Shown here: positions 4,006 through 18,186 of the stretch, piece after piece
Layout: every line of letters begins with the position of its first letter
Position numbering within the stretch: position 1 is the stretch's first letter
Assembly: GCA_963706445.1 (NCBI GenBank)
Contig: OY970160.1
Coordinates: 160,001-224,000 of the forward strand
From: an uncultured Nitrososphaerales archaeon
GTDB lineage: Archaea; Thermoproteota; Nitrososphaeria; Nitrososphaerales; Gagatemarchaeaceae
Length of the DNA stretch: 64,000 bases
Direction of reading: 5' to 3'
The notes under the pieces: model-generated
The model's input: only the letters and a program-made list of their open reading frames with translations
Told to the model about the DNA's origin: nothing
Database searches by the model: none
Translations under genes and position numbers: made by a program

Positions 4006-5430
4006 ATGCGGCTCGAAGAGATTGTGGGCAGGACAGGGTTGCAGGTCGACCAGGTCAGGAGGGCGCTTGAGTGGCTGTCGACCAAAGGATTCGTCACACT
4101 GACGAAATCCAGCAGGTCAAGATTCGAATCCTGTGGCCTGCCTCCAGAGGTCAAAATCGTCCAATTGGTACAGAGCGTGCCGCAACCGACCTCGTTAGCT
4201 GACTTGCGTGCAAACTTTGGCTCAGACCAAGAATTCTCTGCCGCATTGGGCAGAGCCAGGGGCAGAGGATGGGTGACAACAGAAACAGGATCAAGCGGAT
4301 TTACGTTTGTCAAGAGAGGCTCCGAAGATGCTCTGTCTTCAGTGGAAGAAATCCAAGCGCTTTTCACCCATATCACAGGGAACTTCGAACTGTCTGAGAA
4401 GGATAGGGAATTGCTCCCTGAGCTCATCAAGCGAGGATTCATCAAAGAAGCCGAGCAAGCAGAGGTTTCAGTGACTGTCACCCCCAAGGGACTCTCAGAG
4501 GCACTCGGCCTAGACTCCACTGGAACCTTGGACCGGCTGACCCCGGAGGTCTTGGCTTCTGGGGCGTGGAGGGGGAAGTCGCTCAGGCCCATCGACGTCG
4601 AATCGAAGGCCCCTGTCTTCTATCCCGGGCGTAGGCACCCCGTGCGGGATTTCATCAAGGAAGTAAGGGAGGCGTACATCTCGATGGGGTTCACGGAACT
4701 GCAGGGAGACAGCATCCACCCGGGGTTCTGGAACTTCGACGCCCTGTTCATCCCCCAGGACCACCCGAGCAGGGAGATGCAGGACACCTTCTACCTTGAT
4801 GGTCTGACGGACAGGAAGCTGGCCCGGACCGGACCGGTAGCCAACGTTGCGGCGACCCACGAGAACGGCTGGAAGACGGGGAGCATAGGGTGGGGGTACA
4901 CCTGGCGCATCGAGGAGGCACGGAGGCTGGTCCTCAGGACCCACAACACAGTGCTGAGCGTGAAGGCGCTCTCTGAATCAAAGGAGAAGGAGACCAGGGT
5001 CTTCGCGGTGTCGAAGGTTTACAGGAATGAAAACCTCGATTACAAGCATCTTGCGGAATTCTACCAGATGGACGGAATCATCGTCGGGAAGGGCCTCAAT
5101 ATCAGGCACCTGATGGGGTTCCTCACGGAGTTCTACAAGAAGCTGGGGATGACGCAGGTGAAGCTATGGCCCACCTACTTCCCCTACACCGAACCTTCAC
5201 TGCAAGTAATCGGATACTCTAAAGCTGTCAATGCATGGATCGAGCTGTCCGGCTCCGGGGTGTTCCGGCCTGAGGTGACTGTCCCACTTGGGGTCAAGGT
5301 GCCCGTCCTTGCCTGGGGGCCTGGGATCGAGAGGCTCATGCTCATACGATATGGAATGGACGACATCAGGGCCCTCTACGGCAGCGACCTTTCTTGGCTC
5401 AGGAAGAGGAGAGAAATTGCCAGTAGTTAG
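4006..5430 (+). CDS. pheS: Phenylalanine--tRNA ligase alpha subunit (true start probably upstream, ~3943-3955)
   Basis: FWNFDALFIPQDHPSREMQDTFY, LRTHNT, HLAEFYQ, YFPYTEPS, WGPGIERL. Confidence 0.95.
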   Translation: MRLEEIVGRTGLQVDQVRRALEWLSTKGFVTLTKSSRSRFESCGLPPEVKIVQLVQSVPQPTSLADLRANFGSDQEFSAALGRARGRGWVTTETGSSGFTFVKRGSEDALSSVEEIQALFTHITGNFELSEKDRELLPELIKRGFIKEAEQAEVSVTVTPKGLSEALGLDSTGTLDRLTPEVLASGAWRGKSLRPIDVESKAPVFYPGRRHPVRDFIKEVREAYISMGFTELQGDSIHPGFWNFDALFIPQDHPSREMQDTFYLDGLTDRKLARTGPVANVAATHENGWKTGSIGWGYTWRIEEARRLVLRTHNTVLSVKALSESKEKETRVFAVSKVYRNENLDYKHLAEFYQMDGIIVGKGLNIRHLMGFLTEFYKKLGMTQVKLWPTYFPYTEPSLQVIGYSKAVNAWIELSGSGVFRPEVTVPLGVKVPVLAWGPGIERLMLIRYGMDDIRALYGSDLSWLRKRREIASS

Positions 5431-7051
5431 CATAAACATCCCCCGATTCAGCAAGATGGTCGGGGCTGAAAGGAAGAAAATCCTAGACAGGCTCCCCTAT
5501 CTTGGGCTCGACATTGAAAGCTTGGAGAAGAGCACCGTCCGCGTAGAATACAGCCCCAACAGGCCCGACTTCGGCACCGACTTCGGCATCGCTAGGGCGA
5601 TGAGGGGGTTGCTCGGCAGAGAAATAGGGCTGCCAAAGTTCGCGACCCGGCCCTCGGGGATAGCCGTCTCCGTCGACAGGCGACTCTCGACGGTGAGACC
5701 ATTCATCGCATGTGCGACCGCGACGGGGCTGCACCTGGAAGACGAGGACGTCCGCCAGTTGATCTCCCTTCAGGAAGACCTGCACAACGGGCTCGGGAGG
5801 AGGAGAAGGACAGTCGCCATCGGCCTCCACGACATGGACGCAGTCGCGCCTCCCCTGTCCTACAGAGCAGTGGATTCATCCTTCAAGTTCACCCCGCTAG
5901 ACGGGAAGAAGGAGATGACCGTGGCGTCGATCCTCGAGGACACTTCGGAGGGAAGTGCATACGGTTCCGCCCTTTCGGGGGCAAAGGCTTACCCGATGAT
6001 AACGGACTCCAAGGGCACGGTCCTCTCGTTCCCGCCGATCATCAACGGGAACGCCACCAAGGTGACGACGAGGACTCAGAACATGTTCGTCGACGTCACG
6101 AGCACCAACAGGCGGGCAGGGGACGACGTCCTGGCAATCATGTCGTCGACCCTGGTCGAAGCAGGCGGAAAGCTGGGAACGGTATCAATCAAGTACCCCG
6201 ACGGGCCAAGGATCACCCCCGACCTCGAACCCACCGCGACACGTCTGGACTTCGGCCTCGTGAGGTCCACCCTGGGGATGGAACTGACTGCAAGGGAGAT
6301 CACCGATTCGCTCCGAAGGAGCCGCCTTGACGTCAAGAACGGAAAGGCGCTGGCCCCAAGATACAGGGTAGACATCCTGCACCCAGTCGACATCGCCGAA
6401 GAAGTGGCTCTCGGCTACGGGGTCGACAGGATCGAGCCCGACTACCCCGCGAGCAAGCGCCCAGGGTCCTTCAACGACTTCGAGAATTTCTTGGATTCTG
6501 CGTCGACAATCATGGCCGAGTCGGGGATGATAGAGATGATGACCTTCGAGCTCACCAACGAGCGCTCCCTCTACTCAAAGTTCCAGAGAAGCTCTTCCGA
6601 GAAAGTGACGGTGATGGACCCGAAGAGCATCGACCACTCGGTCCTGCGGGACGACCTCCTGCCGACTCTCATAGAATCGCTGTCGGCGAATGTCAAAGAG
6701 GAATACCCCCAGAGGGTGTACGAAATCGGAAGGGTGTACACCCGAATCAGGGGAGGAGTCTCGGAGTCTTGGCAGTTGGGCTGCCTCATCGCCCACTCCC
6801 AATCATCCTTCAGCGAGGCGAAGATGTACGCCGAGTCGGTCTGCCGGCTGCTTTCCGGATTGGAGGCGAAGGCCAAGGAGTCCTCGCACTGGGCCTTTTC
6901 GGCTGGCAGGTGCGCGGCCATCTCCGTCGGCGGGAGCCGGCTCGGTATCGTCGGCGAAGTGAGGCCCGAAGCCATCGAAGCCTTCGGCCTCGGCGTCCCT
7001 GTCTCAGGTTTCGAGCTAACCCTTTCGAAGCTGTTCGAACTGCTAAAATAG
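5417..7051 (+). CDS. pheT: Phenylalanine--tRNA ligase beta subunit
   Basis: TTG start overlapping pheS; PNRPD, LQEDLH, SFPPIIN, RVDILHPVDIAEEVALGYG. Confidence 0.93.
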   Translation: MPVVSINIPRFSKMVGAERKKILDRLPYLGLDIESLEKSTVRVEYSPNRPDFGTDFGIARAMRGLLGREIGLPKFATRPSGIAVSVDRRLSTVRPFIACATATGLHLEDEDVRQLISLQEDLHNGLGRRRRTVAIGLHDMDAVAPPLSYRAVDSSFKFTPLDGKKEMTVASILEDTSEGSAYGSALSGAKAYPMITDSKGTVLSFPPIINGNATKVTTRTQNMFVDVTSTNRRAGDDVLAIMSSTLVEAGGKLGTVSIKYPDGPRITPDLEPTATRLDFGLVRSTLGMELTAREITDSLRRSRLDVKNGKALAPRYRVDILHPVDIAEEVALGYGVDRIEPDYPASKRPGSFNDFENFLDSASTIMAESGMIEMMTFELTNERSLYSKFQRSSSEKVTVMDPKSIDHSVLRDDLLPTLIESLSANVKEEYPQRVYEIGRVYTRIRGGVSESWQLGCLIAHSQSSFSEAKMYAESVCRLLSGLEAKAKESSHWAFSAGRCAAISVGGSRLGIVGEVRPEAIEAFGLGVPVSGFELTLSKLFELLK

Positions 7052-7056
7052 TTCAG

Positions 7057-7190
7057 GGCCTCCCGATGGGCAGACGGCTTTCGTTCTAAAGCGCGCTAAA
7101 CGGCCACCTGCGAAGGCGGAAACGCTTTGATGAGCGGATGGTTTACCCAGTCGCGCGACAGACGGAAGCCGTTTGCCCGTTGAAGAGGCT
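7057..7190 (+). ncRNA. Putative structured RNA of unknown class
   Basis: 7065-7084 pairs fully with 7162-7181 (20 bp, four G·U, no A·C, so plus strand); closed by GGCCTC/GAGGCT; inner GCGCG/CGCGC stem and two terminal hairpins. Confidence 0.55.
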
Positions 7191-7274
7191 AGGTGATGCT
7201 CCCCGCTGAAAGCTGGGACATGATCCGGGCTGTCAGAGACGGGCAACAATCTTCCAAGAGGCGAAAGCGACACG

Positions 7275-7763
7275 ATTGACAAGCGCGAGAGGGTCTACCA
7301 GGCGTTCGGGACCTTCCTCGCCGACTTCATCCGCGATCTGAACCACAGTTCCCAGGACGGGTGGTCGCTGCTCGTCGAAGGCCTCCGGGACCAGAGGGCC
7401 TTAAGGAAACTGGGATACGATGGGCCTCTTGTGACCGTCTCCCTGATGGGAAGGAGCGGGCCAGGGGCGTTGAACGGAGCGAAGAAGGTGGTCATCCTCA
7501 CAGACCTGGACAGGGAGGGGACCATCCTTGCCTCGAAGTTCGTCAGGAGCCTTGGCCATGAAGGGGTCCGAACAACGCTCAGCGAGCGCAGGAGACTGAA
7601 GGCTGCCTCACGGGGGATCTTCCTTCACGTCGAGAACCTCTCGAGGTTCGCTCGGCCGGATGGAATCCGCTGGGAGCCGGTCGTCGGCGACACGCCGCCC
7701 AAGCCTGGCAAGCCCTACGTGGAAGGGCTGAGACGATTCAGGAGAAGGAAGACCTCTGAATAG
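7275..7763 (+). CDS. Small TOPRIM-domain (primase/RNase M5-like) protein
   Basis: Frame extends upstream of the track ORF to include LLVEGLRD; VILTDLDREG DxD motif; start codon uncertain (ATT/ACG/CTG). Confidence 0.8.
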   Translation: MDKRERVYQAFGTFLADFIRDLNHSSQDGWSLLVEGLRDQRALRKLGYDGPLVTVSLMGRSGPGALNGAKKVVILTDLDREGTILASKFVRSLGHEGVRTTLSERRRLKAASRGIFLHVENLSRFARPDGIRWEPVVGDTPPKPGKPYVEGLRRFRRRKTSE

Positions 7764-7788
7764 CGACGTCTTCGGCTGAACGGGCATC

Positions 7789-7796
7789 GGAAAACA
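7789..7796 (+). repeat. 8-bp target-site duplication GGAAAACA, copy 1 of 3
   Basis: Identical octamer at 7789, 10752 and 14298, each abutting a GGTTCTGT terminus. Confidence 0.92.
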
Positions 7797-7929
7797 GGTT
7801 CTGTCAAGTCCTCGTCGGAAATGGCCTGACCGAAAGGCCGTAAACTCTCGTCGGGTTCTATCTCCCTCTCTTCGCACGAAAGGCTGGGTATCGCTATATA
7901 CAATCCCCCTCGCCTTCCTGATACTGTAT

Positions 7930-8412
7930 TTGGTCGGGCTTATCAGCGAAATTGACTTGGGGATGATGGCGCTTTTCCTAACCCTGACCTTCACATATAC
8001 AAAGCCCTTCGAAGGACAAGCTCAAGAAATAGAGAAGTATCTCGAAAACGTAGACCGTCCGAAAGCAGAGATTCCCTACAACATTCAGGCTCGGATAACG
8101 CTTGCATGCGCCATTGCTTCGGGGCTTTTCGTCCTCCACCTTATTCTCACCAACGCGTTCTCCAATGCCTTTGACATTGTCTATTACTATGAAGGAATCC
8201 CACTTCCGATAAGCGTCCTCGCAGAGGCTCCCGTGAGTCTTGTGGTCGCCTTTGCTCTCTATTGGCACTTGGACTTCACATTCTTGCTGGGAAAAGCCCG
8301 AAAGTGGACTCGATTATCCAGCAAGAACCCTGATGATAATGACGATAACAATAATGATGAAGATAACGAGAATAGCCCCGAAAAGGGTAGCATAACCGCC
8401 AAGTCCTCCTAA
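7930..8412 (+). CDS. Hypothetical membrane protein (element 1 cargo)
   Basis: Several hydrophobic segments; frame open back to the left TIR, so start uncertain; 3' end overlaps the convergent gene. Confidence 0.5.
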   Translation: MVGLISEIDLGMMALFLTLTFTYTKPFEGQAQEIEKYLENVDRPKAEIPYNIQARITLACAIASGLFVLHLILTNAFSNAFDIVYYYEGIPLPISVLAEAPVSLVVAFALYWHLDFTFLLGKARKWTRLSSKNPDDNDDNNNDEDNENSPEKGSITAKSS

Positions 8413-8526
8413 TCCGGGGATTTGGCTGGCCGCGCTGAATATGACGACCGCAATCACAAGTATGAAGACTACAGCAATTATCGCAATGGCGACACCGGCC
8501 TGCCCTCTGCGGGGCTCTACCTTCAT
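8314..8526 (-). CDS. Small two-helix hydrophobic protein with class III (pilin-like) signal peptide (element 1 cargo)
   Basis: MKVEPRRG|QAGVAIAIIAVVFILVIAVVIF…ATLFGAILVIFIIIVIVIIIRVLAG; co-oriented downstream of the transposase. Confidence 0.6.
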   Translation of the reverse strand: MKVEPRRGQAGVAIAIIAVVFILVIAVVIFSAASQIPGLGGLGGYATLFGAILVIFIIIVIVIIIRVLAG

Positions 8527-8555
8527 TAGAGTGGAAGTCCTCTCTGCTTTGCCAT

Positions 8556-9689
8556 TTAAGACCGTTCTGTGTCTCTCTTGCTTGCGTTCTGAATAAGCGT
8601 TAACCACTTGTTCTCTCCGCCAACCTTGATTCCTGCCAAGTCTGCGGGAGTCTTCCCCTTCAAGGCCAGATGAGGCCTCACGAAGTTGTGGTAGATTTGA
8701 CAGCCCTTTAGAATCGGGGAATCGTCCGTCTTGAGGCCTCGAAAGGTCTTCTCCCTGTCCCGTATCTCCCCATTCAATCGCTCCATCTTGTTATTGTGAA
8801 TCTTCCCTCTTAGCGTAATCTCGCGGATGTGGGTTGGCGGGTTGCGGAAGGTGTAGTATTCCTTGTTGAACGCCTTGACATAGGAGTTCAGCCCGTCCGT
8901 GATGAGGGTCTTCGGAGTCTTCCCCGCCCTCTCCTTTCCCATCCTGAAGATACTCCGAGCGTCATGGGTGAATTTGGAATCGGCGACCTCTTGTGCTATC
9001 CAGAAGCGGGTCTCGTCGTCCATGATGGCGAAGACATACTTCATCTTCCCCTTGATGTTGACCCATAGCTCGTCGGCTCTCCAAGTGTCAGAGACTTGAG
9101 GGGTTATCTTGTCGAGATGTTTCTCCATTAGTCCCACATACTTCGTTATCCAGTTGTAGACAGTCTGATGCGAGACCTCAGCACCCACGAGCCTAAGCGA
9201 TCTCTGCGTGGCTCTGAGGCTCTCCCCTGAGAAGTATAGCTGGAGAGCCATCGTTATCGCCTTGGGATTGTGCTTCATTCGTTCGAACCCTATGTTAATC
9301 GTGAAGTATCTTCGGCAGTCGAGGCAGTTGAACTTCTGGATGGAACCGCCCTTGTTGTGCCTCTTCCCGTCTTTCACTATGTGCTTTGAACCGCAGAATA
9401 TGCAGGAGTCGGTCGTTGTGAAGTCAGCGAGGACTCCAAGCTCTACCGCCGTCCGAATCTTCCGTGAAAGCTCGACCGCGACTATGTGCTTGCACTTGGC
9501 TTGTCGGTAAGCGTAGTCGGGGCAGGAGCAAGCCCATCCTGACTCCAAGGCTCGGACTGAATACTCCACCTTCCCCGACTGAGACCTGACCGCGTATTCG
9601 TTGTCGTCTAACCTTCGAACTTGGTCTCCAAGGTCGCAGATTAGCCTGCCACGCTCAGCGCGAAAATCATAAGCGGGAGCTTGGCTCAT
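8556..9689 (-). CDS. IS6-like DDE transposase with N-terminal SWIM zinc finger and IS1-like Zn ribbon
   Basis: CSCPD…CKH (SWIM), CIFC…CLDC, HTH, WRADE / ITDG / NNKMERLNG catalytic DDE. Confidence 0.9.
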   Translation of the reverse strand: MSQAPAYDFRAERGRLICDLGDQVRRLDDNEYAVRSQSGKVEYSVRALESGWACSCPDYAYRQAKCKHIVAVELSRKIRTAVELGVLADFTTTDSCIFCGSKHIVKDGKRHNKGGSIQKFNCLDCRRYFTINIGFERMKHNPKAITMALQLYFSGESLRATQRSLRLVGAEVSHQTVYNWITKYVGLMEKHLDKITPQVSDTWRADELWVNIKGKMKYVFAIMDDETRFWIAQEVADSKFTHDARSIFRMGKERAGKTPKTLITDGLNSYVKAFNKEYYTFRNPPTHIREITLRGKIHNNKMERLNGEIRDREKTFRGLKTDDSPILKGCQIYHNFVRPHLALKGKTPADLAGIKVGGENKWLTLIQNASKRDTERS

Positions 9690-9781
9690 CTGTCAGCCAA
9701 CTCCCTCTCATTCTGTCGGGCTTCGAGCCTCTCGAAATATTCCTCGTCGCCCATTTCGAAGCGGAGTTCTTCTGTGCTCAT
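9686..9781 (-). CDS. 31-aa leader ORF coupled to the transposase
   Basis: MSTEELRFEMGDEEYFERLEARQNERELADR*; its TGA overlaps the transposase ATG; homolog in element 2. Confidence 0.7.
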   Translation of the reverse strand: MSTEELRFEMGDEEYFERLEARQNERELADR

Positions 9782-9790
9782 CTTGCTCAC

Positions 9791-9855
9791 GTATGCACCT
9801 ATGCACGGGGGTTATATAAGATGCGTGGTTAGTGGAGAGAACTTATATGCACGTA
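9791..9855. promoter_or_regulatory. Divergent promoter region with TATGCAC repeats (putative RHH operator)
   Basis: TATA-like TTATATAA and TTATAT; TATGCAC three times. Confidence 0.55.
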
Positions 9856-9872
9856 TCTACCGACTACCGCGC

Positions 9873-10040
9873 ATGGGAAAGACCACACGGTTGAACCTCG
9901 TCGTTGACGAGGACTTGGAGCAGAAGTTCCGTCGTGCCGTTTTCGACAAATATGGTATGAAGAAGGGGAACATACAGAAGGCTGTAGAAGAGGCGTTGCA
10001 GGATTGGATGAAACAGCAGAAGAGAGAGAACAGAAGTTAG
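9873..10040 (+). CDS. Ribbon-helix-helix (CopG-like) regulator
   Basis: MGKTTRLNLVVDEDLEQKFR…KGNIQKAVEEALQDW; divergent from the transposase. Confidence 0.75.
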   Translation: MGKTTRLNLVVDEDLEQKFRRAVFDKYGMKKGNIQKAVEEALQDWMKQQKRENRS

Positions 10041-10462
10041 ACACGGCCTACAAACACTTGGCTGAAAATCTTGCCAAGGAAAAGGCTGAATACGCGAAGA
10101 AGGCAGAAGAGCTTGAAACCCACTATGAACATATCAACCTCAAAACGATGGAATATGAAGTGGCGAAGGACGAAAAGAACGCCACCTATGCTTTCTTCGC
10201 GACGTTTCAATTCTTCTCACTTGCTCAAACCTTCCGACTTGCAGAGAGAATGACGGCTGAGTTTGAAACACTTTACAAGTCGGATTACATCTCCATGAAG
10301 AACTCGATAAGGATCGAAAAACAGCTACCTAAGAGAGTCGCGTTGGATTTGGATGGAGCAATAGCCCGATATGAAAAGTCGTTAGAAGGTCGGTTGATGG
10401 CGAAAGAAGACAAGGCCATGTTGACTTTCTTCTGGAATTACTTCATGGGAGACCAGACATGA
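10004..10462 (+). CDS. Hypothetical helical protein (element 1)
   Basis: 152-aa ORF in operon between the RHH gene and the terminal ORF; start uncertain. Confidence 0.6.
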   Translation: MDETAEEREQKLDTAYKHLAENLAKEKAEYAKKAEELETHYEHINLKTMEYEVAKDEKNATYAFFATFQFFSLAQTFRLAERMTAEFETLYKSDYISMKNSIRIEKQLPKRVALDLDGAIARYEKSLEGRLMAKEDKAMLTFFWNYFMGDQT

Positions 10463-10785
10463 TACCTGAAAACCAGATGAAGCTCGCCCTTCTGGAAGAG
10501 TTCAAGAAGGCCTACAGGTATCAGAGCTTCTATTTCGAGGAATGCGAAGCCCTTTCGAGCCTCATACAGAGAGCTATACAATACTATCAAAAGCAAGGGT
10601 TAGAGGTTCCCAACAGGCAGGAGCTTTACAGGCTCGCTGAGGCCTTGCAGGGAGTCGTGGACAAGCACGAGGAGTTCAAGCGGTCCGTCTTACCCGACGA
10701 TTCTTTACACCACCCACAAAAACCCTGTTCCGACGAGGACTTGACAGAACCGGAAAACAGGTTCTGTTACCTCTTAGACGGATGA
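10459..10785 (+). CDS. Conserved terminal ORF of element 1 (reads through right TIR and DR)
   Basis: ATGA-coupled; QKQGLEVPNRQELY resembles CERNNIEIPDRERLY in 14025..14384. Confidence 0.65.
   Translation: MIPENQMKLALLEEFKKAYRYQSFYFEECEALSSLIQRAIQYYQKQGLEVPNRQELYRLAEALQGVVDKHEEFKRSVLPDDSLHHPQKPCSDEDLTEPENRFCYLLDG
10752..10759 (+). repeat. 8-bp target-site duplication GGAAAACA, copy 2 (shared between elements)
   Basis: …ACAGAACC-GGAAAACA-GGTTCTGT…. Confidence 0.92.
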
Positions 10786-10818
10786 CCCCTGCGAGTTCTC
10801 GCTGTTACTTTTCGGGGG

Positions 10819-11433
10819 TTATTTCTTAGGCTTCCTAAAGACGATTTCTTCCTTCTTCTCTCGGTAGGTGACATCAAACTTGCGAAAGATGCTGTCCCTG
10901 CCCAAGACAGCGTGAGGAATCGAGCCTTCCTTGTCTGGGACAAGCACCCTCAAGTTTTCGAATGAACAGAACGGATGACGCCCCTTGAGAACCTCGACCA
11001 AGTCTATAGTGACTTCGTAAGTCCCAAACATTCCTCCAGCACCAACTGCTTCGTGTTTTTTCACTTTCTTCTCGGGTTGTGGCGTCTGCACTTCCATCCG
11101 CTCCACTTGAATCTCTTCCTTTGTAACCAGCCCCCCATGTTGCATCAACTGCATCTCCTGTTGGACTACCTGCGTCTCCTGTGTAGCCTGCTCGTGCTGT
11201 GGGCGCGGCTCCTGAGTCACAGGTTCCAATTCGAAGCCCAGAATGTTCATCAGGTCTATTGGCATGAATGTGGCAGTAGCTCCTGAATCAACGAGTGCGT
11301 CGGTTCGGAAAGATTTTCCCTTGTGACTTAACCGAATGTGAACCAACGGTAGTCTAAAAGGGCGCTTCAGTCTCGGGTCGGTAAAAGTTAGGTAGCTACA
11401 GACGATGGCGGCTTGACCATGAGGCCGGAACAC
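10819..11433 (-). CDS. Retropepsin-like (clan AA) aspartyl protease with Q/E-rich insertion
   Basis: ALVDSGAT catalytic motif, VGAGG flap, VLGRDSIF motif. Confidence 0.8.
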   Translation of the reverse strand: MFRPHGQAAIVCSYLTFTDPRLKRPFRLPLVHIRLSHKGKSFRTDALVDSGATATFMPIDLMNILGFELEPVTQEPRPQHEQATQETQVVQQEMQLMQHGGLVTKEEIQVERMEVQTPQPEKKVKKHEAVGAGGMFGTYEVTIDLVEVLKGRHPFCSFENLRVLVPDKEGSIPHAVLGRDSIFRKFDVTYREKKEEIVFRKPKK

Positions 11434-11440
11434 TACGTCC

Positions 11441-11647
11441 TCACATCAGCATTATTGCGTCGGCAGGAACCTTCATTATGAAAGGCTCTTTGTCTGGGAA
11501 TTTCCTCTTTGCTTCGTTATACACTTCTTTCGCGTTCAATCCCTTGGCTACAACATCCTTTCCAACAACGGCAATCCACTTACCTGCTTCGAGGTCTTTG
11601 CTCACTGACATTACATACTCAAACTCACTCATGACTTGGGCTACCAT
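11441..11647 (-). CDS. DUF5678-like small protein
   Basis: GKWIAVVGKDVVAKG…EVYNEAKRKFP…PFIMKVP pattern; directly upstream of the protease. Confidence 0.75.
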   Translation of the reverse strand: MVAQVMSEFEYVMSVSKDLEAGKWIAVVGKDVVAKGLNAKEVYNEAKRKFPDKEPFIMKVPADAIMLM

Positions 11648-11733
11648 AATCTCGACCTCTGCACGCGCTATTAATCGATTGCGGTATTTATGTTAACATG
11701 GAGGTCAAATCCATACGTATCTAAACCAAAGAG

Positions 11734-12864
11734 TCACGAAATGAGCCCCTTTTCCCTGCTCGCGTTCTGAATCAGGGTCAACCACTTGTTCTTCCCCATC
11801 ACCTTGATTCCTGCCAAGTCCGCAGGGGTCTTTCCGTCCAAGGCCTGATGAGGCCTTACGAAGTTGTGGTAGATTTGTAGGCCCTTCAGGATGGGCGTAT
11901 CCACGACCTTCAGCCCCCGCATCACCCTCTCGCGGTCTCTAAGCTCTCCGTTCAACCGTTCCATCTTGTTGTTATGGATTTTGCCCCTGAGAGTAATCTC
12001 CCTGATGTGCGTCGGCGGGTCTCGGAAGGTGTAGTATTCCTTGTTGAACGCCTTGACATAGGCGTTCAGCCCGTCCGTGATGAGAGTCTTCGGAGTCTTC
12101 CCTGCCCTCTCCTTCCCCATCCTGAATACGCTCCGTGCGTCGTGGGTGAACTTCGTGTCTGCGACTTCCTGAGCCAGCCAGAAGCGGGTCTCGTCGTCCA
12201 TCATGGCAAAGACATACTTCATGTCCCCTCGGAACTTGACATAGACCTCATCGGCTCTCCAAGTGTCAGACACTTGAGGGGTAATCTTGTCGAGGTATGT
12301 CTCCATCAGGCCGACATACTTCTGAATCCACTTCCAAACCGTCTTGTGTGAGACTTCCACGCCCAACAGTTTCAGGGATTTCTGTGTATTCCGAAGGCTC
12401 TCGCCTGAGAAGTATAGCTGAAGGGCGGTCGTGATAGCCTTGGGGTCGTGCTTCATCCTCTCGAAACCCACGTTCACGGAGAAGTCGCATCCGCACTCTC
12501 GGCAGGTGAACCTCTGAAGGTCTCCTGCCTTGTTATGGCGAACTCCGTCCTTGATGACATGCTTCGAACCGCAGAACAGGCACGCGTCGGTCGTGGTGAA
12601 CTCCGCGAGTGTCCCAAGCTCAACAGCCGTCCGAATCTTTCGCGAAAGCTCTACCGCGACTATATGTTTGCACTTGGTTTGTCGGTAGGCATAGTCGGGG
12701 CAGGAGCAAGACCAGCCCGACTCCAAGGCTCGGACTGAATACTCCCCCTTCCCCGACTGAGACCTGACCGCATACTCGTTGTCGTCTAACCTTCGAACTT
12801 GGTCTCCAAGGTCGCAGATTAGCCTGCCACGCTCAGCGCGAACATCGTAGGCAGGGAGGCTCAT
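11734..12864 (-). CDS. IS6-like DDE transposase with SWIM and Zn-ribbon domains (second copy)
   Basis: Same motifs as 8556..9689; clearly homologous but diverged. Confidence 0.9.
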   Translation of the reverse strand: MSLPAYDVRAERGRLICDLGDQVRRLDDNEYAVRSQSGKGEYSVRALESGWSCSCPDYAYRQTKCKHIVAVELSRKIRTAVELGTLAEFTTTDACLFCGSKHVIKDGVRHNKAGDLQRFTCRECGCDFSVNVGFERMKHDPKAITTALQLYFSGESLRNTQKSLKLLGVEVSHKTVWKWIQKYVGLMETYLDKITPQVSDTWRADEVYVKFRGDMKYVFAMMDDETRFWLAQEVADTKFTHDARSVFRMGKERAGKTPKTLITDGLNAYVKAFNKEYYTFRDPPTHIREITLRGKIHNNKMERLNGELRDRERVMRGLKVVDTPILKGLQIYHNFVRPHQALDGKTPADLAGIKVMGKNKWLTLIQNASREKGLIS

Positions 12865-12956
12865 TGAAAGTCGAGCCCCCTGAACTTTCGGTATTCTGCC
12901 TGTCTTTCTTCATACTCTTCGTCTCCCATTTCGAAGCGGAGTTGTTCTGTGCTCAT
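12861..12956 (-). CDS. 31-aa leader ORF coupled to the transposase
   Basis: MSTEQLRFEMGDEEYEERQAEYRKFRGLDFQ*; ATGA overlap with the transposase start. Confidence 0.7.
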   Translation of the reverse strand: MSTEQLRFEMGDEEYEERQAEYRKFRGLDFQ

Positions 12957-13075
12957 ACTATATCCCTATACTCCTATACCATATAAACCTATACTTCTTT
13001 ACTCAGAAAAGAGAACATGAGACGATTGATTCGTTGTTTTCAGGGCAACAGTATAAATATAGGAAACTATACGGC
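12957..13075. promoter_or_regulatory. Divergent promoter region with CTATAC repeats (putative RHH operator)
   Basis: CCTATAC three times around ATATAAA plus CTATAC after TATAAATA. Confidence 0.55.
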
Positions 13076-13083
13076 ATTAAGAC

Positions 13084-13245
13084 ATGGCAAAGATGGAAGT
13101 CGTCGAACTCGATGACGAATTGGACGCGAGATTCAGGCAGGCGATAATGAAATCAAAGGGACTCCGCAAGGGAGTCATCAAGGAAGCCTTCGAAGAAGCA
13201 ATCGAGGACTGGATAGCGAAGTCTCTGAAGGCGAAAGGAAAGTGA
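13084..13245 (+). CDS. Ribbon-helix-helix (CopG-like) regulator (absent from ORF track)
   Basis: MAKMEVVELDDELDARFRQAIMKSKGLRKGVIKEAFEEAIEDWIAK…; homologous to 9873..10040. Confidence 0.75.
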   Translation: MAKMEVVELDDELDARFRQAIMKSKGLRKGVIKEAFEEAIEDWIAKSLKAKGK

Positions 13246-13628
13246 GCGACAAGGAAGAATTAGAGACAATCGCCTACAGCCAGCGAATGCTACACACAAT
13301 CGAGAATGACGCGCTGAGAGCGGCAGATGTCCTCGTCGGGGAGGCAGAGAAGGCCCGACGTTATCCCAACCTGCAACTCAACCCATTCAAGAGCTTGATG
13401 CTCACAGCAAATCTCCTGCACGATTTGTCTTTCATGGCAACCGTCCAAGAGTATCTTCTCTCCAAAGAGAGCTTGAGGCTGTCGGCAGGAACCGACCCCG
13501 AATTGCTTCAGCAGACATTAGCGAAGGTGCGGGAAGTCGAGGTCGAGTTGAAGAAAAGAGAGAAGGGGCTGAACTGGGTCGATAATCTCCTGAATCACAC
13601 GCCCGAAACTGGAGAAAGGGAACCATGA
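13242..13628 (+). CDS. Hypothetical helical protein (paralog A)
   Basis: GTGA-coupled to the RHH gene; C-terminal KGLNWVDNLLNHTPET. Confidence 0.7.
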   Translation: MSDKEELETIAYSQRMLHTIENDALRAADVLVGEAEKARRYPNLQLNPFKSLMLTANLLHDLSFMATVQEYLLSKESLRLSAGTDPELLQQTLAKVREVEVELKKREKGLNWVDNLLNHTPETGEREP

Positions 13629-14020
13629 AGTCAAAGAAAGCCAGATGGACTACAATCACCACCAAGCAGGCTGAGGACGTTCTCGACCTCCGATTGAAGG
13701 ACATCAGGAAGTCGCTTCAGACGCTCAAGGAAAGGGGGTTCGACGCGACCAAGAGGCCAGACCCGAAGGACATCAACCTGATGCTCACATGGAGCATACT
13801 CGGATTGGCGCAGAGGACGCTCAAAGACCTTGAAATCCTCTATGTCTACCACAAGATGTGGATTGAGAACATTGAGGGTTCTCCGAATAGCTACACCAAA
13901 CAGAATCCCAAGCTGGCTAAGAAAGTGTCGAAGCTTGCGAGAGAGATTCAAAGTAGAAAGAAGGGGCTTGATTGGGTGGACAACTTAATCGAGCACACGC
14001 CCGACACGACACCCATCTGA
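13625..14020 (+). CDS. Hypothetical helical protein (paralog B)
   Basis: ATGA-coupled; C-terminal KGLDWVDNLIEHTPDT. Confidence 0.7.
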   Translation: MKSKKARWTTITTKQAEDVLDLRLKDIRKSLQTLKERGFDATKRPDPKDINLMLTWSILGLAQRTLKDLEILYVYHKMWIENIEGSPNSYTKQNPKLAKKVSKLAREIQSRKKGLDWVDNLIEHTPDTTPI

Positions 14021-14024
14021 GGCG

Positions 14025-14384
14025 ATGGAATTGGATTCAGACAGAATGAGGATGGCGATGGTCGCGGAGACCCAAGAACTGATTCGAAGGGAGAAATTGG
14101 CCTTGGAGCTGATAGATGTCCTCGACTTCAACTTCCAATGGCTTCTGCGCTTCTGCGAGAGGAACAATATCGAGATACCCGACCGAGAAAGGCTCTATCT
14201 CTCGCTGAACAAGGTTAGGCGACTCATGGGGCAGTTATCCCCCGAAAATTCCCACCGAGACGACTTTGACCCCAACTTCCGAGAAGGTAACAGAACCGGA
14301 AAACAAGAAGTTTATAACCCCGAAAAAATTGGTGGGGTTCAATTAACGATTAACACCGTTAAGCAACGAGTGAAACAGAAATGA
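14025..14384 (+). CDS. Conserved terminal ORF of element 2 (reads through right TIR into host DNA)
   Basis: Similar to 10459..10785; no stop inside the element. Confidence 0.65.
   Translation: MELDSDRMRMAMVAETQELIRREKLALELIDVLDFNFQWLLRFCERNNIEIPDRERLYLSLNKVRRLMGQLSPENSHRDDFDPNFREGNRTGKQEVYNPEKIGGVQLTINTVKQRVKQK
14298..14305 (+). repeat. 8-bp target-site duplication GGAAAACA, copy 3
   Basis: Follows the right TIR of element 2; 5 bp upstream of TTTATAA. Confidence 0.92.
14311..14317 (+). promoter_or_regulatory. Probable TATA box of dnaG
   Basis: TTTATAA preceded by purine-rich BRE-like sequence, upstream of dnaG. Confidence 0.5.
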
Positions 14385-14399
14385 AAGGAGATAAAGGAA

Positions 14400-15569
14400 T
14401 TGCCAGATTCAGGTATAGTAAAGTATCTAGTAAAACTCAAGTTTGAAGTAGACGGGGTCGTTGAAAGAGCCGACGTAATCGGGGCGATCTTCGGTCAAAC
14501 CGAGGGTCTCTTCGGCCCTGAGATGAACCTCAACGAGCTTCAGAAGAGTTGGAAGGTAGGCAGGATAGAGATTAACCTAGAGTCGAAGAACGACAAGACC
14601 AGGGGTGAGGTCATCGTCCCCATGTCCACCGACATCGGCACCGCGGCTCTTATCGCCGCAGCCGTGGAGAGCGTCGACAAGGTCGGGCCGTGCAGCGCCA
14701 GATTCACAGTAGGTGTCATAGAGGACGTCCGCGCAGTCAAGCGGAAGCAGATAGTAGACAGGGCAAAGCTCATAGTCAGAGACTGGAGCTCAAAGACTTC
14801 CAGCGAGGGGGAGAACCTCCTCAAAGACGTCACCGAGTCCACCAAGAGGGCGAAGGTCGTCAACTACGGGATGGAGAACCTTCCCGCAGGCCCCGGAGTC
14901 TTCTCATCAGAGTTGGTTTATCTCGTCGAAGGAAGGGCGGACGTCGTCCTCTTCCTCAGGGCAGGCATCGAGAACGTCGTGGCCCTTGAGGGGACCAGCG
15001 TTCCAGAGTCGATAATCGAGCTCGGGAAGAAGAAGCGGCTCATCGCAGTCTTGGACGGCGACAGAGGAGGGGACCTGATTCAGAAGGAACTGGCCCAGGT
15101 GGTCAGGGTTGAAAAGGTCCTCAGAGCGCCCACAGGCAAGGAAGTCGAGGATCTAACCCCCATTGATGTAATCAACCTCCTGAGGGAGGGAGGGGCCGAG
15201 CCGGCCGCGGTTTCTCGCAAGGAGAGGAGGGAAGAGAGGGCTGCACCCGCGGTCCCCGCAGAGCCCGACGAGCCGGTGGTCGTCAAGACAAGAGAGCTAT
15301 TCCCGAACCTTAACGGGACGCTGGAAGCTGTCCTCCTCGACCAGGGACTCCAGGAGATAGGCAGATTCCCAATCAGCGAGCTGGTCCAAAAGATGGAGGG
15401 GACCAATGGTGCTCAGTATCTGATCTTCGACGGCATTGTGACCCAGAGGCTGGTAGAATCAGCCGCCAGGCTGGGCGTGAAGGGGATAATCGGCCACCGC
15501 ACTGGCGAGCTGGGCGAAGTCCCAGGCGACGTAAGGATTGGGACCTTCCGCGACCTCGGCCTAGAGTAG
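14400..15569 (+). CDS. dnaG: Archaeal DnaG (primase-like, exosome-associated)
   Basis: DVIGAIFGQTEGL, GRIE, VEGRADV, DGDRGG motifs. Confidence 0.95.
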   Translation: MPDSGIVKYLVKLKFEVDGVVERADVIGAIFGQTEGLFGPEMNLNELQKSWKVGRIEINLESKNDKTRGEVIVPMSTDIGTAALIAAAVESVDKVGPCSARFTVGVIEDVRAVKRKQIVDRAKLIVRDWSSKTSSEGENLLKDVTESTKRAKVVNYGMENLPAGPGVFSSELVYLVEGRADVVLFLRAGIENVVALEGTSVPESIIELGKKKRLIAVLDGDRGGDLIQKELAQVVRVEKVLRAPTGKEVEDLTPIDVINLLREGGAEPAAVSRKERREERAAPAVPAEPDEPVVVKTRELFPNLNGTLEAVLLDQGLQEIGRFPISELVQKMEGTNGAQYLIFDGIVTQRLVESAARLGVKGIIGHRTGELGEVPGDVRIGTFRDLGLE

Positions 15570-15577
15570 CCGGGCCG

Positions 15578-16633
15578 TTGATAGTCAACGAGTTCAACCC
15601 GAAGCACGGCTTCTGTTCGCTTACCATCGAGTCCGCCGAGGACCTCTGGACCCTGAGGCGTCTGATAGCGAAGGGAGACGTCCTTGTCACCCGCAGCTCG
15701 AGGGTGGTCAAGAAGGAAGACGAGTACTCGCGCCCCGACAAAGGGGAGCGGGTGAAGGTGACCATCGCGCTTTCAGTGGACGACGTCCACCTAGACAACA
15801 GCATCGAAAGAATCCGCGCGAGAGGCACCATCATCGAGGCGAGCGACGAGACCGTCCCCAAGGTGGGGTCGCACTCGGTCACCCTCAGTCCGGGCCACTC
15901 CATCACGATACGGAAACGCGTATGGACACCCCTCGACATCAACCTCGTCCGTCCGCCGAGGCGCTCCGAGTCCAGGTTCGTCCTCGTCGCAGCCGACCGG
16001 AGGGAGGCGGGCCTGGGGACCCTCGGTGGTTCCCACCTCTCATATTCGACAACAATCGAGTCGGGGCTGGGGGGGAAGATGGGAGACGAACAGAGCCCCA
16101 AGCCGTACATCTCCAAGGTGGTCGACACAGTCGCCCAGATTCACCATGAAGGGGAGATCGTCGTGGTAGCCGGCCCCGGGAACTTCAAGAATGCGATTGC
16201 CAACCAGATTAAGGAGAAGCTGAAGCCGGCGCAAGTGAGCGTCCTCGAGGGCCTCGATCTGACTGGTGCGGACGGGGTCAGAGCCCTCGTCAAGGTCCCG
16301 GCCTTCGAGAACCTGGCCAAGGACTCGCTGGTAGTGGAACTCCAGAAGCTGGTCGGAGAGGTCGTCATGAGGATCTCCACCGCTGACCCGAAGGTCGCCT
16401 ACACCCTCTCCAGAGTTAGGGCCGCCGCAAGTGCCGGGGCGGTAGAAGCGTGCGCTGTATCCGACGACGTGTTTTCGTCCGGGATAGACGAGGCTGAATT
16501 GGTGGATACTTTGAACCTAGTCGAGAGCAAGAGAGGATTGGTCTACTTGGCTGACTCGTCCATGGAGTATGGGAAGCAAGTCTCCTCTTTCGGGGGCATC
16601 GTCGCCCTCCTGAGGTACGCGCTTAGAGCTTAG
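15578..16633 (+). CDS. pelA: mRNA surveillance protein pelota (Dom34)
   Basis: ESAEDLWTL, AGPGNFK, FGGIVALLRY. Confidence 0.88.
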   Translation: MIVNEFNPKHGFCSLTIESAEDLWTLRRLIAKGDVLVTRSSRVVKKEDEYSRPDKGERVKVTIALSVDDVHLDNSIERIRARGTIIEASDETVPKVGSHSVTLSPGHSITIRKRVWTPLDINLVRPPRRSESRFVLVAADRREAGLGTLGGSHLSYSTTIESGLGGKMGDEQSPKPYISKVVDTVAQIHHEGEIVVVAGPGNFKNAIANQIKEKLKPAQVSVLEGLDLTGADGVRALVKVPAFENLAKDSLVVELQKLVGEVVMRISTADPKVAYTLSRVRAAASAGAVEACAVSDDVFSSGIDEAELVDTLNLVESKRGLVYLADSSMEYGKQVSSFGGIVALLRYALRA

Positions 16634-16889
16634 CTAGGTAGGGGAAGATGAACTCGGCGATCACAGCGAGCGCGACCCCGCCCTTGATTAGGTCTTTGCC
16701 TAGGCGTCTTTCGAGGTGGGTAAAGTAGAGGAGCACCCCGAGCATCAGGAGGGTGACGTAGGCGAGGCGAGACAGGTCTATCACCGTCGAATCTATCGTC
16801 CCTAGGAGCACCGCCATCGCCGAAGTGAACTCCTGGGTGAACTGCTGAATCAGGCCCTCCACCCCCGGAGGAGGCTGGTCGCTCGACAT
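16623..16889 (-). CDS. Small hypothetical membrane protein
   Basis: Two hydrophobic helices; co-oriented downstream of the site-2 protease. Confidence 0.6.
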   Translation of the reverse strand: MSSDQPPPGVEGLIQQFTQEFTSAMAVLLGTIDSTVIDLSRLAYVTLLMLGVLLYFTHLERRLGKDLIKGGVALAVIAEFIFPYLAKL

Positions 16890-16926
16890 CGAGATACTAA
16901 CTGGTTTTTCCATTTAACGGGCAACG

Positions 16927-18186
16927 TCACAGAAGCCAGGGTACGGCGATGACTCCCAGAATCAGTCCGATGACTGCCAATGTTGCAGCCGCCGTAATCC
17001 TCATCACCGTCTTCTCACTCAACTTCCCTTTACCGAGGGCTTTCACTCCTACCATGAAGGCTTGCCCGCCATCCAGAGGATAGATTGGGAGGGCGTTGAA
17101 GATGGCCAGGTTGAAGTTGAGGAAGAAGATCCAGTAGATTAGATTGACTGCGGGTATCACGCCTGGCCCCAGCGAGGAAGTATAGAACGGCGACATCGTG
17201 TCAGAGAACGGCACATGTGTCTGGCAGGTGGGGAGGGTCGGGATGCACACGTACAGGAATGGCTGGGTAAACGCCGCTCCTGCATAGGTACTCACCAGAC
17301 CCTGAAGGCTCGAAACGCTCTGAGTCCCCGGAGTCCCCAGGCTCAGGCCGATGAAGGGACTCTTGAAGGTCTGGCCGCTGGATACGTTCTCAAGGAGCTG
17401 ATATGATATCGTGACGTTCTTCTCGAACGTGTTCCCGTCCCTCCAGAGGGTGACCAACACCGTGTTGTTGATCTTGTACCACGGGCTGCTGCTTATGGCC
17501 GAGGGATCGTTCAGAGGCGTGCCGTCTATCGCCAAAATGTAATCGTAGGTCTGGACCCCGGCCTTGCTCAACGGAGAATTGGCGACCACGACCACTCCAA
17601 TTCCCTGTTGGCTGGCCGGCCTCATTGTCGACACCATACCGACGAGGAGCACGAGGCAAAGGAGACCGACAACCAGGTTGATCCCTGCCCCCGCTGCCAA
17701 GACCCTCCCAGAGTGGGACGCAGGCGCTGACTTGATCGCGTTCTCGTCGACATCCACGAAGGCGCCGATCGGCACGAACAGGAAGAAGAGGAGCCCCGAC
17801 GCCTTGACGGGGAGCCCCAGGCTCCTCGCCACGATTCCGTGGGCCCCCTCGTGTATTATCATCGCTATCACGAGTGCTATCCAACCATCGAAGATCGGGA
17901 GGTAGGGGTTGATCCCCGGGATGCCGAGGTTGGCCAACGGGCTGAGAGTGTGGATGTAGGAGATGACTGCGGACCCTCGAGGAGAAAGAAGGATGCCCAC
18001 CTCGCTGACGAAAATGTAGAACCCTATGGCCGCCGCCACGGGCATGACGTAGAGGAGAAACCACCCGGCGGGTTTTGATATCCTGTTCCCACCGAGCCTG
18101 TCCATGATTGCCTGGAATCTTCTGGTCCTCACAAGGGTGATGAGCCCGTAATAGGACTCGAACCTCTTGTACTCCTTCTCTTCCAA
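16927..18186 (-). CDS. Site-2 protease (M50) with PDZ domain
   Basis: HEGAH, GAFVD, NALPIYPLDGG. Confidence 0.92.
   Translation of the reverse strand: MEEKEYKRFESYYGLITLVRTRRFQAIMDRLGGNRISKPAGWFLLYVMPVAAAIGFYIFVSEVGILLSPRGSAVISYIHTLSPLANLGIPGINPYLPIFDGWIALVIAMIIHEGAHGIVARSLGLPVKASGLLFFLFVPIGAFVDVDENAIKSAPASHSGRVLAAGAGINLVVGLLCLVLLVGMVSTMRPASQQGIGVVVVANSPLSKAGVQTYDYILAIDGTPLNDPSAISSSPWYKINNTVLVTLWRDGNTFEKNVTISYQLLENVSSGQTFKSPFIGLSLGTPGTQSVSSLQGLVSTYAGAAFTQPFLYVCIPTLPTCQTHVPFSDTMSPFYTSSLGPGVIPAVNLIYWIFFLNFNLAIFNALPIYPLDGGQAFMVGVKALGKGKLSEKTVMRITAAATLAVIGLILGVIAVPWLL

Follow-up and report, generated by a model that had tools for sequence, protein, structure and literature searches.

Two multi-gene IS6-like transposons stacked before the dnaG promoter of a Nitrososphaerales archaeon, and the promoter-edge position of their relatives

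The dnaG locus and its two elements

In an uncultured Nitrososphaerales archaeon, the primase gene dnaG is preceded by two different transposons, termed E1 and E2, that lie end to end within the 64-kb stretch of contig OY970160.1 analysed here (the window, to which all unprefixed positions refer). The upstream host gene is a small Toprim-like open reading frame (ORF) of 110 aa with a weak Pfam Toprim match (7431..7763, plus strand), orthologues of which lie upstream of dnaG in 28 of 29 same-genus loci. The downstream gene is dnaG itself (14400..15569, plus strand), for which a domain search found the Toprim domain of an archaeal DnaG primase. Its core promoter, which 29 same-genus species retain both with and without an element, consists of a purine-rich AGAAG at the position of the transcription factor B recognition element (BRE) and the TATA box TTTATAA (together 14306..14317, plus strand).

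The 8-mer GGAAAACA occurs exactly three times in the window, and every copy directly touches an element end: copy 1 (7789..7796) begins 25 bp after the stop of the Toprim-like ORF and adjoins E1, copy 2 (10752..10759) is common to E1 and E2, and copy 3 (14298..14305) separates E2 from the dnaG promoter. By itself the count is not significant, with 1.39 copies expected and at least three found in 13 of 100 shuffles; the copies are recognized as non-chance because of their placement at element ends rather than their number. The sequence GGTTCTGT marks all four element ends, pointing inward, at 7797 (plus), 10744 (minus), 10760 (plus) and 14290 (minus). In-silico excision of both elements leaves one GGAAAACA, followed by AGAAG and the TATA box (14311-14317) before dnaG. 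An earlier note on this DNA, made from its letters, had read the three copies as brackets around two complete elements whose removal would restore a single 8-mer, and the relatives bear this out: short, empty dnaG spacers are present in three same-genus species (L076, L082 and L085), and that of L076 contains the identical GGAAAACA in the same arrangement.

The junctions were checked against contigs assembled independently from public runs of two studies, one of peat (2017) and one of soil (2024), one of which runs may be the source sample of the genome assembly. The junction between host DNA and E1 is bridged by a contig of run X1, that between E1 and E2 by contigs of runs X1 and X2, and that between E2 and dnaG by contigs of runs X1, X2 and X4, in each case with zero differences. 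Because contigs of two studies bridge all three junctions, the stack is not an assembly artefact. Joints of an empty site or of a one-element allele were not seen in the public-run contigs, although contigs drop rare variants and absence is not implied. Summed contig depth was compared between 7682-14150 and the flanks in runs X1 and X2; in run X1 it is roughly half over the elements (~2-5) of what it is over the flanks (~8-9), for which possible causes are a subpopulation without the elements and a fragmented assembly of repeats.

E1 (7797..10751, minus strand; 2,955 bp) is the promoter-distal member of the stack. Its left terminal inverted repeat (TIR; 7797..7820, plus strand) is 24 nt long and matches its partner at 10728-10751 perfectly. 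The 377-aa transposase (8556..9689, minus strand) combines a SWIM finger, a four-cysteine zinc ribbon and an IS6-type DDE core, and a 31-aa upstream ORF (9686..9781, minus strand) overlaps its start in an ATGA. Reading in the other direction are a small ribbon-helix-helix (RHH)-type gene of 55 aa (9873..10040, plus strand; RHH_6, E 1e-4, below the Pfam cut-off), a helical ORF of 152 aa from its first start (10004..10462, plus strand) for which domain searches gave no family match, and a terminal ORF of 108 aa (10459..10785, plus strand) that crosses the right TIR and the 8-mer and finds its stop inside E2. By BLAST this last ORF clusters with the terminal ORFs of E2 and of the relative L035. 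The cargo at the opposite end is a hydrophobic ORF of 160 aa (7930..8412, plus strand), likewise without a family match in domain searches, which overlaps a 97-aa minus-strand ORF (8314-8607); either of the two could be the real gene.

E2 (10760..14297, minus strand; 3,538 bp) lies next to the promoter and is bounded by TIRs (10760-10772/14285-14297) that agree perfectly over 13 nt and in 15 of 20 positions over 20 nt. Its cargo comprises a retropepsin-like aspartyl protease of 204 aa (10819..11433, minus strand; Asp_protease_2) and a DUF5678 protein of 68 aa (11441..11647, minus strand; E 5.5e-14). These are followed by the 376-aa transposase (11734..12864, minus strand), again with a 31-aa upstream ORF overlapping its start (12861..12956, minus strand), and by a divergent small gene of 53 aa (13084..13245, plus strand) that BLAST groups with the RHH gene of E1. 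Two paralogous helical ORFs of 128 and 131 aa (13242..14020, plus strand), for which domain searches found no known family, lead to a terminal ORF of 119 aa (14025..14384, plus strand; same BLAST cluster) whose frame continues across the right TIR and the 8-mer and on through the dnaG TATA box. E2 also has a second inverted repeat in subterminal position (10797-10821/14236-14260; 25 nt, 80% complementary), ~37-60 bp inside each end, with a core similar to the sequence that immediately follows the dnaG TATA box (TATAACCCCGAAAA).

The two elements thus have one order in common, as the earlier note had described it: cargo, a minus-strand transposase with its 31-aa leader ORF, a divergent RHH-type gene, one or two helical ORFs, and a terminal ORF. 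In both elements this last ORF runs out through the right TIR with no stop inside the element. The perfect TIRs of 24 and 13 bp that the same note reported were recovered by an inverted-repeat search. Both elements are lower in G+C (E1 50%, E2 51%) than the host flanks (59%). Pfam and NCBIfam searches of the accessory ORFs gave nothing beyond weak RHH matches, and the ESM Atlas offered, for an E2 helical ORF and the terminal ORF of E1, models of low confidence (pLDDT ~0.5) without informative relatives. An Rfam search over 5000-17000 had zero matches, and a scan for sigma-70 promoters and terminators found nothing above shuffles, its models being bacterial and not applicable to an archaeon. 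The ~60 nt between the dnaG TATA box and the dnaG start (14340-14399) are conserved across the 29 species and contain a small inverted repeat, TTAACG ... CGTTAA (14343-14362), that may be a leader or operator element.

Across the genus, about ten species carry remnants resembling element tips exactly 8 + 5 bp before the dnaG TATA box, without an intact element (for example ...ACAGAACC, ...ACAGAGCC and ...GAGAACC). Some of these remnants are clearly co-inherited and others are of a different type; independent events cannot be counted, but the site upstream of dnaG has been used repeatedly. Several of these species (dnaG upstream regions within L072-L100) have 250-600 bp of extra DNA at this place, in some cases with a small Zn-ribbon-like ORF (L074, L079).

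Transposase kinship and the wider family

The two transposases match Pfam DDE_Tnp_IS240 with 51.2 and 59.4 bits (cut-off 27), as well as the Pfam SWIM model, and score 118.7 and 119.3 bits against the NCBIfam model NF033587 (IS6 family transposase), just under its equivalog cut-off of 125, with matches that span the whole model (1-202). On sequence grounds their kinship to the IS6 family is evidently a distant one. The SWIM finger (residues 49-75; C53/C55/C65/H67 in E2) and the four-cysteine ribbon (95-129; C95/C98/C121/C124) lie N-terminal to the DDE core, and the zinc ligands together with D205, D264, E302 and R309 show no variation among 22 homologues, a set that includes E1 and E2.

The element ends also resemble those of IS6 members. 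All four ends in the window start with GG and have G at position 7, as in the IS6 consensus GGTTCTGTTGCAAA. Among the 45 bounded relatives described below, a majority start with GGTTCTG and others with the variants GGCTCTG, GGAACTG or GGTACTG; a few (GGTAACG, GGTAGTG) lack the G at position 7. Perfect 8-bp repeats flank all 45, in agreement with the 8-bp duplications of the family. Two features depart from the family pattern: IS6 members are single-gene elements of ~0.7-0.9 kb (up to 1.76 kb), and each element here has at least ~1.1 kb of further genes; a typical IS6 transposase consists of an H-HTH (helix-turn-helix) region and the DDE core only, and here the SWIM finger and ribbon are added. 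The proposal that E1 and E2 are multi-gene unit transposons with IS6 hallmarks has held up. The group is best filed as IS6-like DDE transposons that are multi-gene, carry SWIM and ribbon zinc modules, and are probably position-directed at promoters, giving ordered stacks.

Roughly 4,460 relatives of the transposase were found in a protein collection, the named ones coming from Nitrososphaerales and Nitrososphaeria metagenome-assembled genomes (MAGs). A match is present in 27 of 61 related genomes, and Bathyarchaeia MAGs from peat and soil hold copies at ~60% identity. When the DNA around copies was searched for GG-starting inverted repeats flanked by direct repeats, 45 distinct bounded elements were obtained from same-genus genomes, Bathyarchaeia MAGs and metagenome contigs, each with a perfect 8-bp duplication. 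They are 2,189-6,533 bp long and all multi-gene. The gene next to the transposase encodes a small DNA-binding protein of varying type (RHH, AbrB-like or HTH), the remaining genes are variable, and the 31-aa upstream ORF is restricted to the closest subgroup (4 of 43 elements).

With regard to cargo, the DUF5678-protease pair of E2 occupies the same position in a 3,613-bp element from another metagenome (L139; transposase 68% identical), which indicates that the pair travels with the element. A putative DNA methyltransferase (an ORF of 428-585 aa with a DPPF-type motif, judged from a BLAST cluster and the motif by eye rather than by Pfam) is carried by the elements L058, L142 and L054 (4,984, 5,988 and 4,554 bp). 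Archaea, then, do have passenger-carrying DNA transposons, and the family moves genes between Nitrososphaerales and Bathyarchaeia of peat and soil.

Besides E1 and E2, no further intact family copy is present in this genome. Two degenerate IS6-like transposase remnants (C1:537173-538002 and C1:1144110-1144484) are 35-44% identical and split or interrupted by a stop, and no recognizable ends were found at either. An 88-bp non-autonomous derivative (C1:1458959-1459046), with a TIR that starts GGTTCTGTTAAC and matches at 16 of 20 positions, is flanked by the perfect 8-bp duplication GGCGGCCC and lies ~10 bp upstream of a TATA-like box, with an IscA-like ORF beginning 41 bp away from the duplication. 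A solitary tip of an element (...CTTGACAGAGCC; C1:1587207-1587228) precedes 8 bp, then 6 bp and a TATA-like box; the body of the element is absent, and the tip looks like the scar of an old insertion at another promoter. A search of 67 short contigs for circular or episomal forms found no terminal overlaps.

Promoter-edge position, stacking and their probable explanation

The 8-mers of the 45 bounded copies are mutually unrelated and all different, which shows that GGAAAACA is not recognized as such. What is conserved is their position, ~5-6 bp upstream of a host TATA box. With a TATA proxy defined as a 7-bp window of at least 6 A/T whose start lies no more than 13 bp from one side of the duplication, an A/T-rich box was found at 36 of 37 unique sites, as against 36% of random intergenic and 18% of random genome positions (binomial p ~2e-15). 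When similar promoters were collapsed and null expectations were drawn from each locus's own DNA, 26 of 29 sites qualified and 6.0-8.9 were expected. Beyond the duplication, the base profile shows A at +3, and T and A alternate from +7 to +13. The boxes read away from the element, with an ORF start 31-60 bp from the duplication at most sites, and either element end can face the promoter (22 versus 15). A target that mimics the inner TIR (CAAGTT-like) was also considered; CAA is frequent at flank positions +1 to +3, but no element-by-element match was apparent by inspection.

The ORFs downstream of these promoters encode the ribosomal proteins S17e (in several populations) and S8e, Alba, the TATA-binding protein (TBP), NifU, an iron-sulfur (FeS)-assembly protein, an aminotransferase, a lyase, a ZIP transporter and an HTH protein whose promoter is used in three species, in addition to DnaG in the window. 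They are ordinary host genes, often highly expressed. No tRNA genes were found as targets in 24 loci. The junction presumably falls near -40, approximately the upstream limit of the footprint of TBP and transcription factor B (TFB), a placement that fits a promoter that stays functional.

Tandem stacking is likewise recurrent: 17 of the 45 elements adjoin another element end across a common 8-mer, four of them on both sides. In addition to the two-member array at dnaG, there is a two-member array at the promoter of S8e (L148), and arrays of at least three members border the promoters of a TBP gene (L137) and an HTH gene (L139), a promoter whose gene was not identified (L204), and, at the visible left border of L110, a TATA-like box, again with no gene identified. 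In all arrays whose outer border can be seen, a TATA box marks one side at the usual distance. The elements within an array may point either way, with transposases that are 55-74% identical to that of E2. In the window, the E1 transposase is 83.1% identical to that of E2 but 88.7% identical to a copy from a different locus in another genome, and E1 and E2 can be aligned in the transposase region only (80% DNA identity); the two are thus separate acquisitions rather than products of a duplication. Tabulating ends, duplications and targets of homologues, as the earlier note had suggested, therefore upholds its view of a landing place that is hit again and again, at dnaG as elsewhere, and refutes a strict target sequence.

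These observations are probably best explained by promoter-edge-directed integration on the part of the archaeal multi-gene group, of which the dnaG stack would be one instance, with E1 first and E2 second. Integration would take place at the upstream edge of a host core promoter, the duplication ending ~5-6 bp before the TATA box and just outside the BRE, so that the promoter is left intact. After an insertion, the 8-bp copy on the promoter side would still lie equally far from the TATA box; a further member directed to this promoter would therefore cut those 8 bp once more, so that later arrivals re-use them. The outcome would be the order 8-mer, element, 8-mer, element, 8-mer, promoter, with the newest member beside the promoter. 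In five of five stacks with a decayed or cut-into neighbour tip (L042b, L044, L061, L114, L189), that tip is on the side away from the TATA box, and since the newest member is expected to be promoter-proximal and the decayed tips lie on the far side, E2 probably arrived after E1.

Several points weigh against this explanation. The TATA boxes were called by an A/T-richness proxy and not by mapped transcription starts; the box lies at no constant offset from the duplication (0-13 with the proxy, 3-7 in most cases when judged by eye), is missing at one site (L051) and is weak at another (L048). The sites are not all independent, since some are orthologous or belong to related populations; 29-31 are left after collapsing. 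The polarity argument consists of five cases. IS256-type transposases, which would have served as a control from a second insertion sequence (IS) family, are absent from 55 genomes of the genus, so that the removal of harmful insertions by selection is not formally distinguished from targeting. Part of the precise re-use of the 8 bp could also stem from attraction to a resident element end.

That last idea, taken as a full alternative, is that the transpososome is drawn to a resident TIR and inserts in the flanking 8 bp, with promoter proximity arising from a separate cause. It would account for the precision of re-use at the 17 elements that meet another end across an identical 8-mer, for the near-misses at resident tips (a 5-bp overlap in L042b, offsets of 1-2 bp in L044 and L061), and it could draw on the first 7-8 bases common to all family ends. 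We nevertheless regard it as unlikely. Solitary elements without a neighbour stand at the same TATA distance, the first member of any array must have arrived without a resident end, and resident ends differ beyond base 8. Moreover, attraction to an end predicts decayed neighbours on both sides, and those observed are promoter-distal in all five cases.

Random insertion followed by purifying selection, in which insertions survive only in the short interval between the upstream gene and the BRE/TATA region, has in its favour that coding sequence takes up ~89% of the genome according to a crude ORF map and that the dnaG spacer offers only ~25 positions. It is a good deal less probable still, since selection cannot make two or three different elements use the same base pair, as 17 of the 45 elements do, and since the proxy box is found at 97% of the observed sites and 36% of random intergenic positions. 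Old element remnants, where insertion would be neutral, are unused. At several sites, 180-700 bp lacking a frame of at least 90 codons were available on the other side and the element is still at the TATA edge, a weak argument in that promoter-distal free space was measured with a crude ORF caller that is noisy in G+C-rich DNA. We infer that targeting rather than selection sets the position of the elements.

Sequence-specific recognition of GGAAAACA as a safe-harbour attachment site is hardly credible: the same 8-mer is used twice here and is kept as a purine-rich AAAACA before dnaG in relatives, but the 8-mers of the other bounded copies are unrelated to it, and 34 of its 37 copies in the 1.82-Mb genome have no element. 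Equally implausible is tandem duplication followed by divergence, or cointegrate-type recombination between two copies, which the same orientation, layout and transposase similarity of E1 and E2 might suggest, given that their cargo, accessory genes and TIRs beyond base 9 are unalignable, that the E1 transposase is nearer to a copy in another genome than to that of E2, and that members of other arrays differ and lie in either orientation, which excludes duplication and IS26-type cointegrate products as a general cause.

With promoter-edge-directed integration as the preferred explanation, one simple rule would cover both where the elements lie and how they stack, and would predict the order of arrival in arrays. 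It would also point to an interaction of the transposase with the machinery of archaeal transcription initiation. For most prokaryotic transposons, the choice of target is the step understood least. A more speculative possibility, which we hold to be less likely than not, is that the SWIM/Zn-ribbon N-terminus tethers the transposase to promoter-bound TFB/TBP and so directs integration to the upstream edge of the complex, as a prokaryotic DNA-transposon counterpart of Ty3 at TFIIIB. If so, strong housekeeping promoters would serve as landing pads at which foreign cargo (methyltransferases, proteases, membrane proteins) is collected in ordered stacks, the latest arrival being closest to the promoter. 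This genome encodes two TBP genes and about five TFB paralogues, which would be relevant if targeting uses a particular TFB. When these MAGs are annotated, stretches of several kilobases of foreign DNA immediately before housekeeping promoters should be taken neither for assembly errors nor for host genes.

Comparison with known systems

The IS6 members listed in ISfinder are 0.7-1.76 kb long, have a single gene and generate 8-bp duplications; zinc-finger extensions occur only in clostridial clades, and one member has a passenger gene (PMC7986276, PMC6807381, also the source of the TIR consensus used above). The E1/E2 group shares with IS26, IS257 and IS6100 a DDE core matched by IS6/IS240 models, GG-starting TIRs with G at position 7 and the 8-bp duplication, and the first 8-9 bases of its TIRs equal the bacterial consensus GGTTCTGTT (PMC6807381). 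It differs in its length of 2.2-6.5 kb with a divergent regulator, small ORFs and cargo, ISDsp3 being the only listed IS6 member with a passenger gene. It also has the SWIM finger and Zn ribbon that short IS6 transposases lack and in place of which the long clostridial clades have a different CxxC zinc finger, and its insertion is position-biased to promoters. IS26 arrays and pseudo-compound transposons consist of identical direct copies with no new duplication, whereas the members of the arrays described here differ, with transposases 55-88% identical to that of E2, lie in both orientations and have the 8-mer repeated between them.

In the insertion beside inverted repeats by IS30, IS21 and IS911, and in the targeted conservative insertion of IS26, a new copy is likewise placed directly beside a resident end (PMC7986276). 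These reactions need a resident copy of the same IS and leave no repeated 8-bp duplication; here, solitary copies choose the same site. A 2019 survey of Thaumarchaeota reported that passenger-carrying DNA transposons were undetected in archaea, and it described a site re-used in tandem for casposons and proviruses alone (PMC6563490). Casposons and tyrosine-recombinase elements resemble the present group in forming tandem arrays of different elements at one target with a repeat between members (PMC6563490), but they integrate by means of Cas1 or tyrosine integrases at targets defined by sequence (tRNA genes, ef-2), whereas the E1/E2 group uses a DDE transposase and a position at many promoters. 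The earlier comparison to an integron cassette array survives as an analogy only. Integrons rely on IntI, attI and attC sites and promoterless cassettes driven from Pc; the units here are bounded by TIRs, each carry a transposase and may point in either direction, the host promoter is oriented away from them, neither attC nor attI was found, and domain searches of 5288-16633 detected no integrase domain.

Literature searches found no published description of the E1/E2-type architecture or of promoter-edge targeting, and the archaeal multi-gene IS6-like group is apparently undescribed. To our knowledge, no archaeal or bacterial DDE element is known to aim at promoters by position. Parallels in behaviour exist among eukaryotic elements: Ty3, which integrates at TFIIIB-bound Pol III start sites, Ty1 and Tf1, and the Mutator-like elements, whose transposases also carry a SWIM finger. 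These are retrotransposons or eukaryotic DNA transposons, and here the host is an archaeon with a TBP/TFB promoter and the tether is hypothetical; the likeness lies in a fixed place relative to the promoter, a gene that is spared and a site that is used again.

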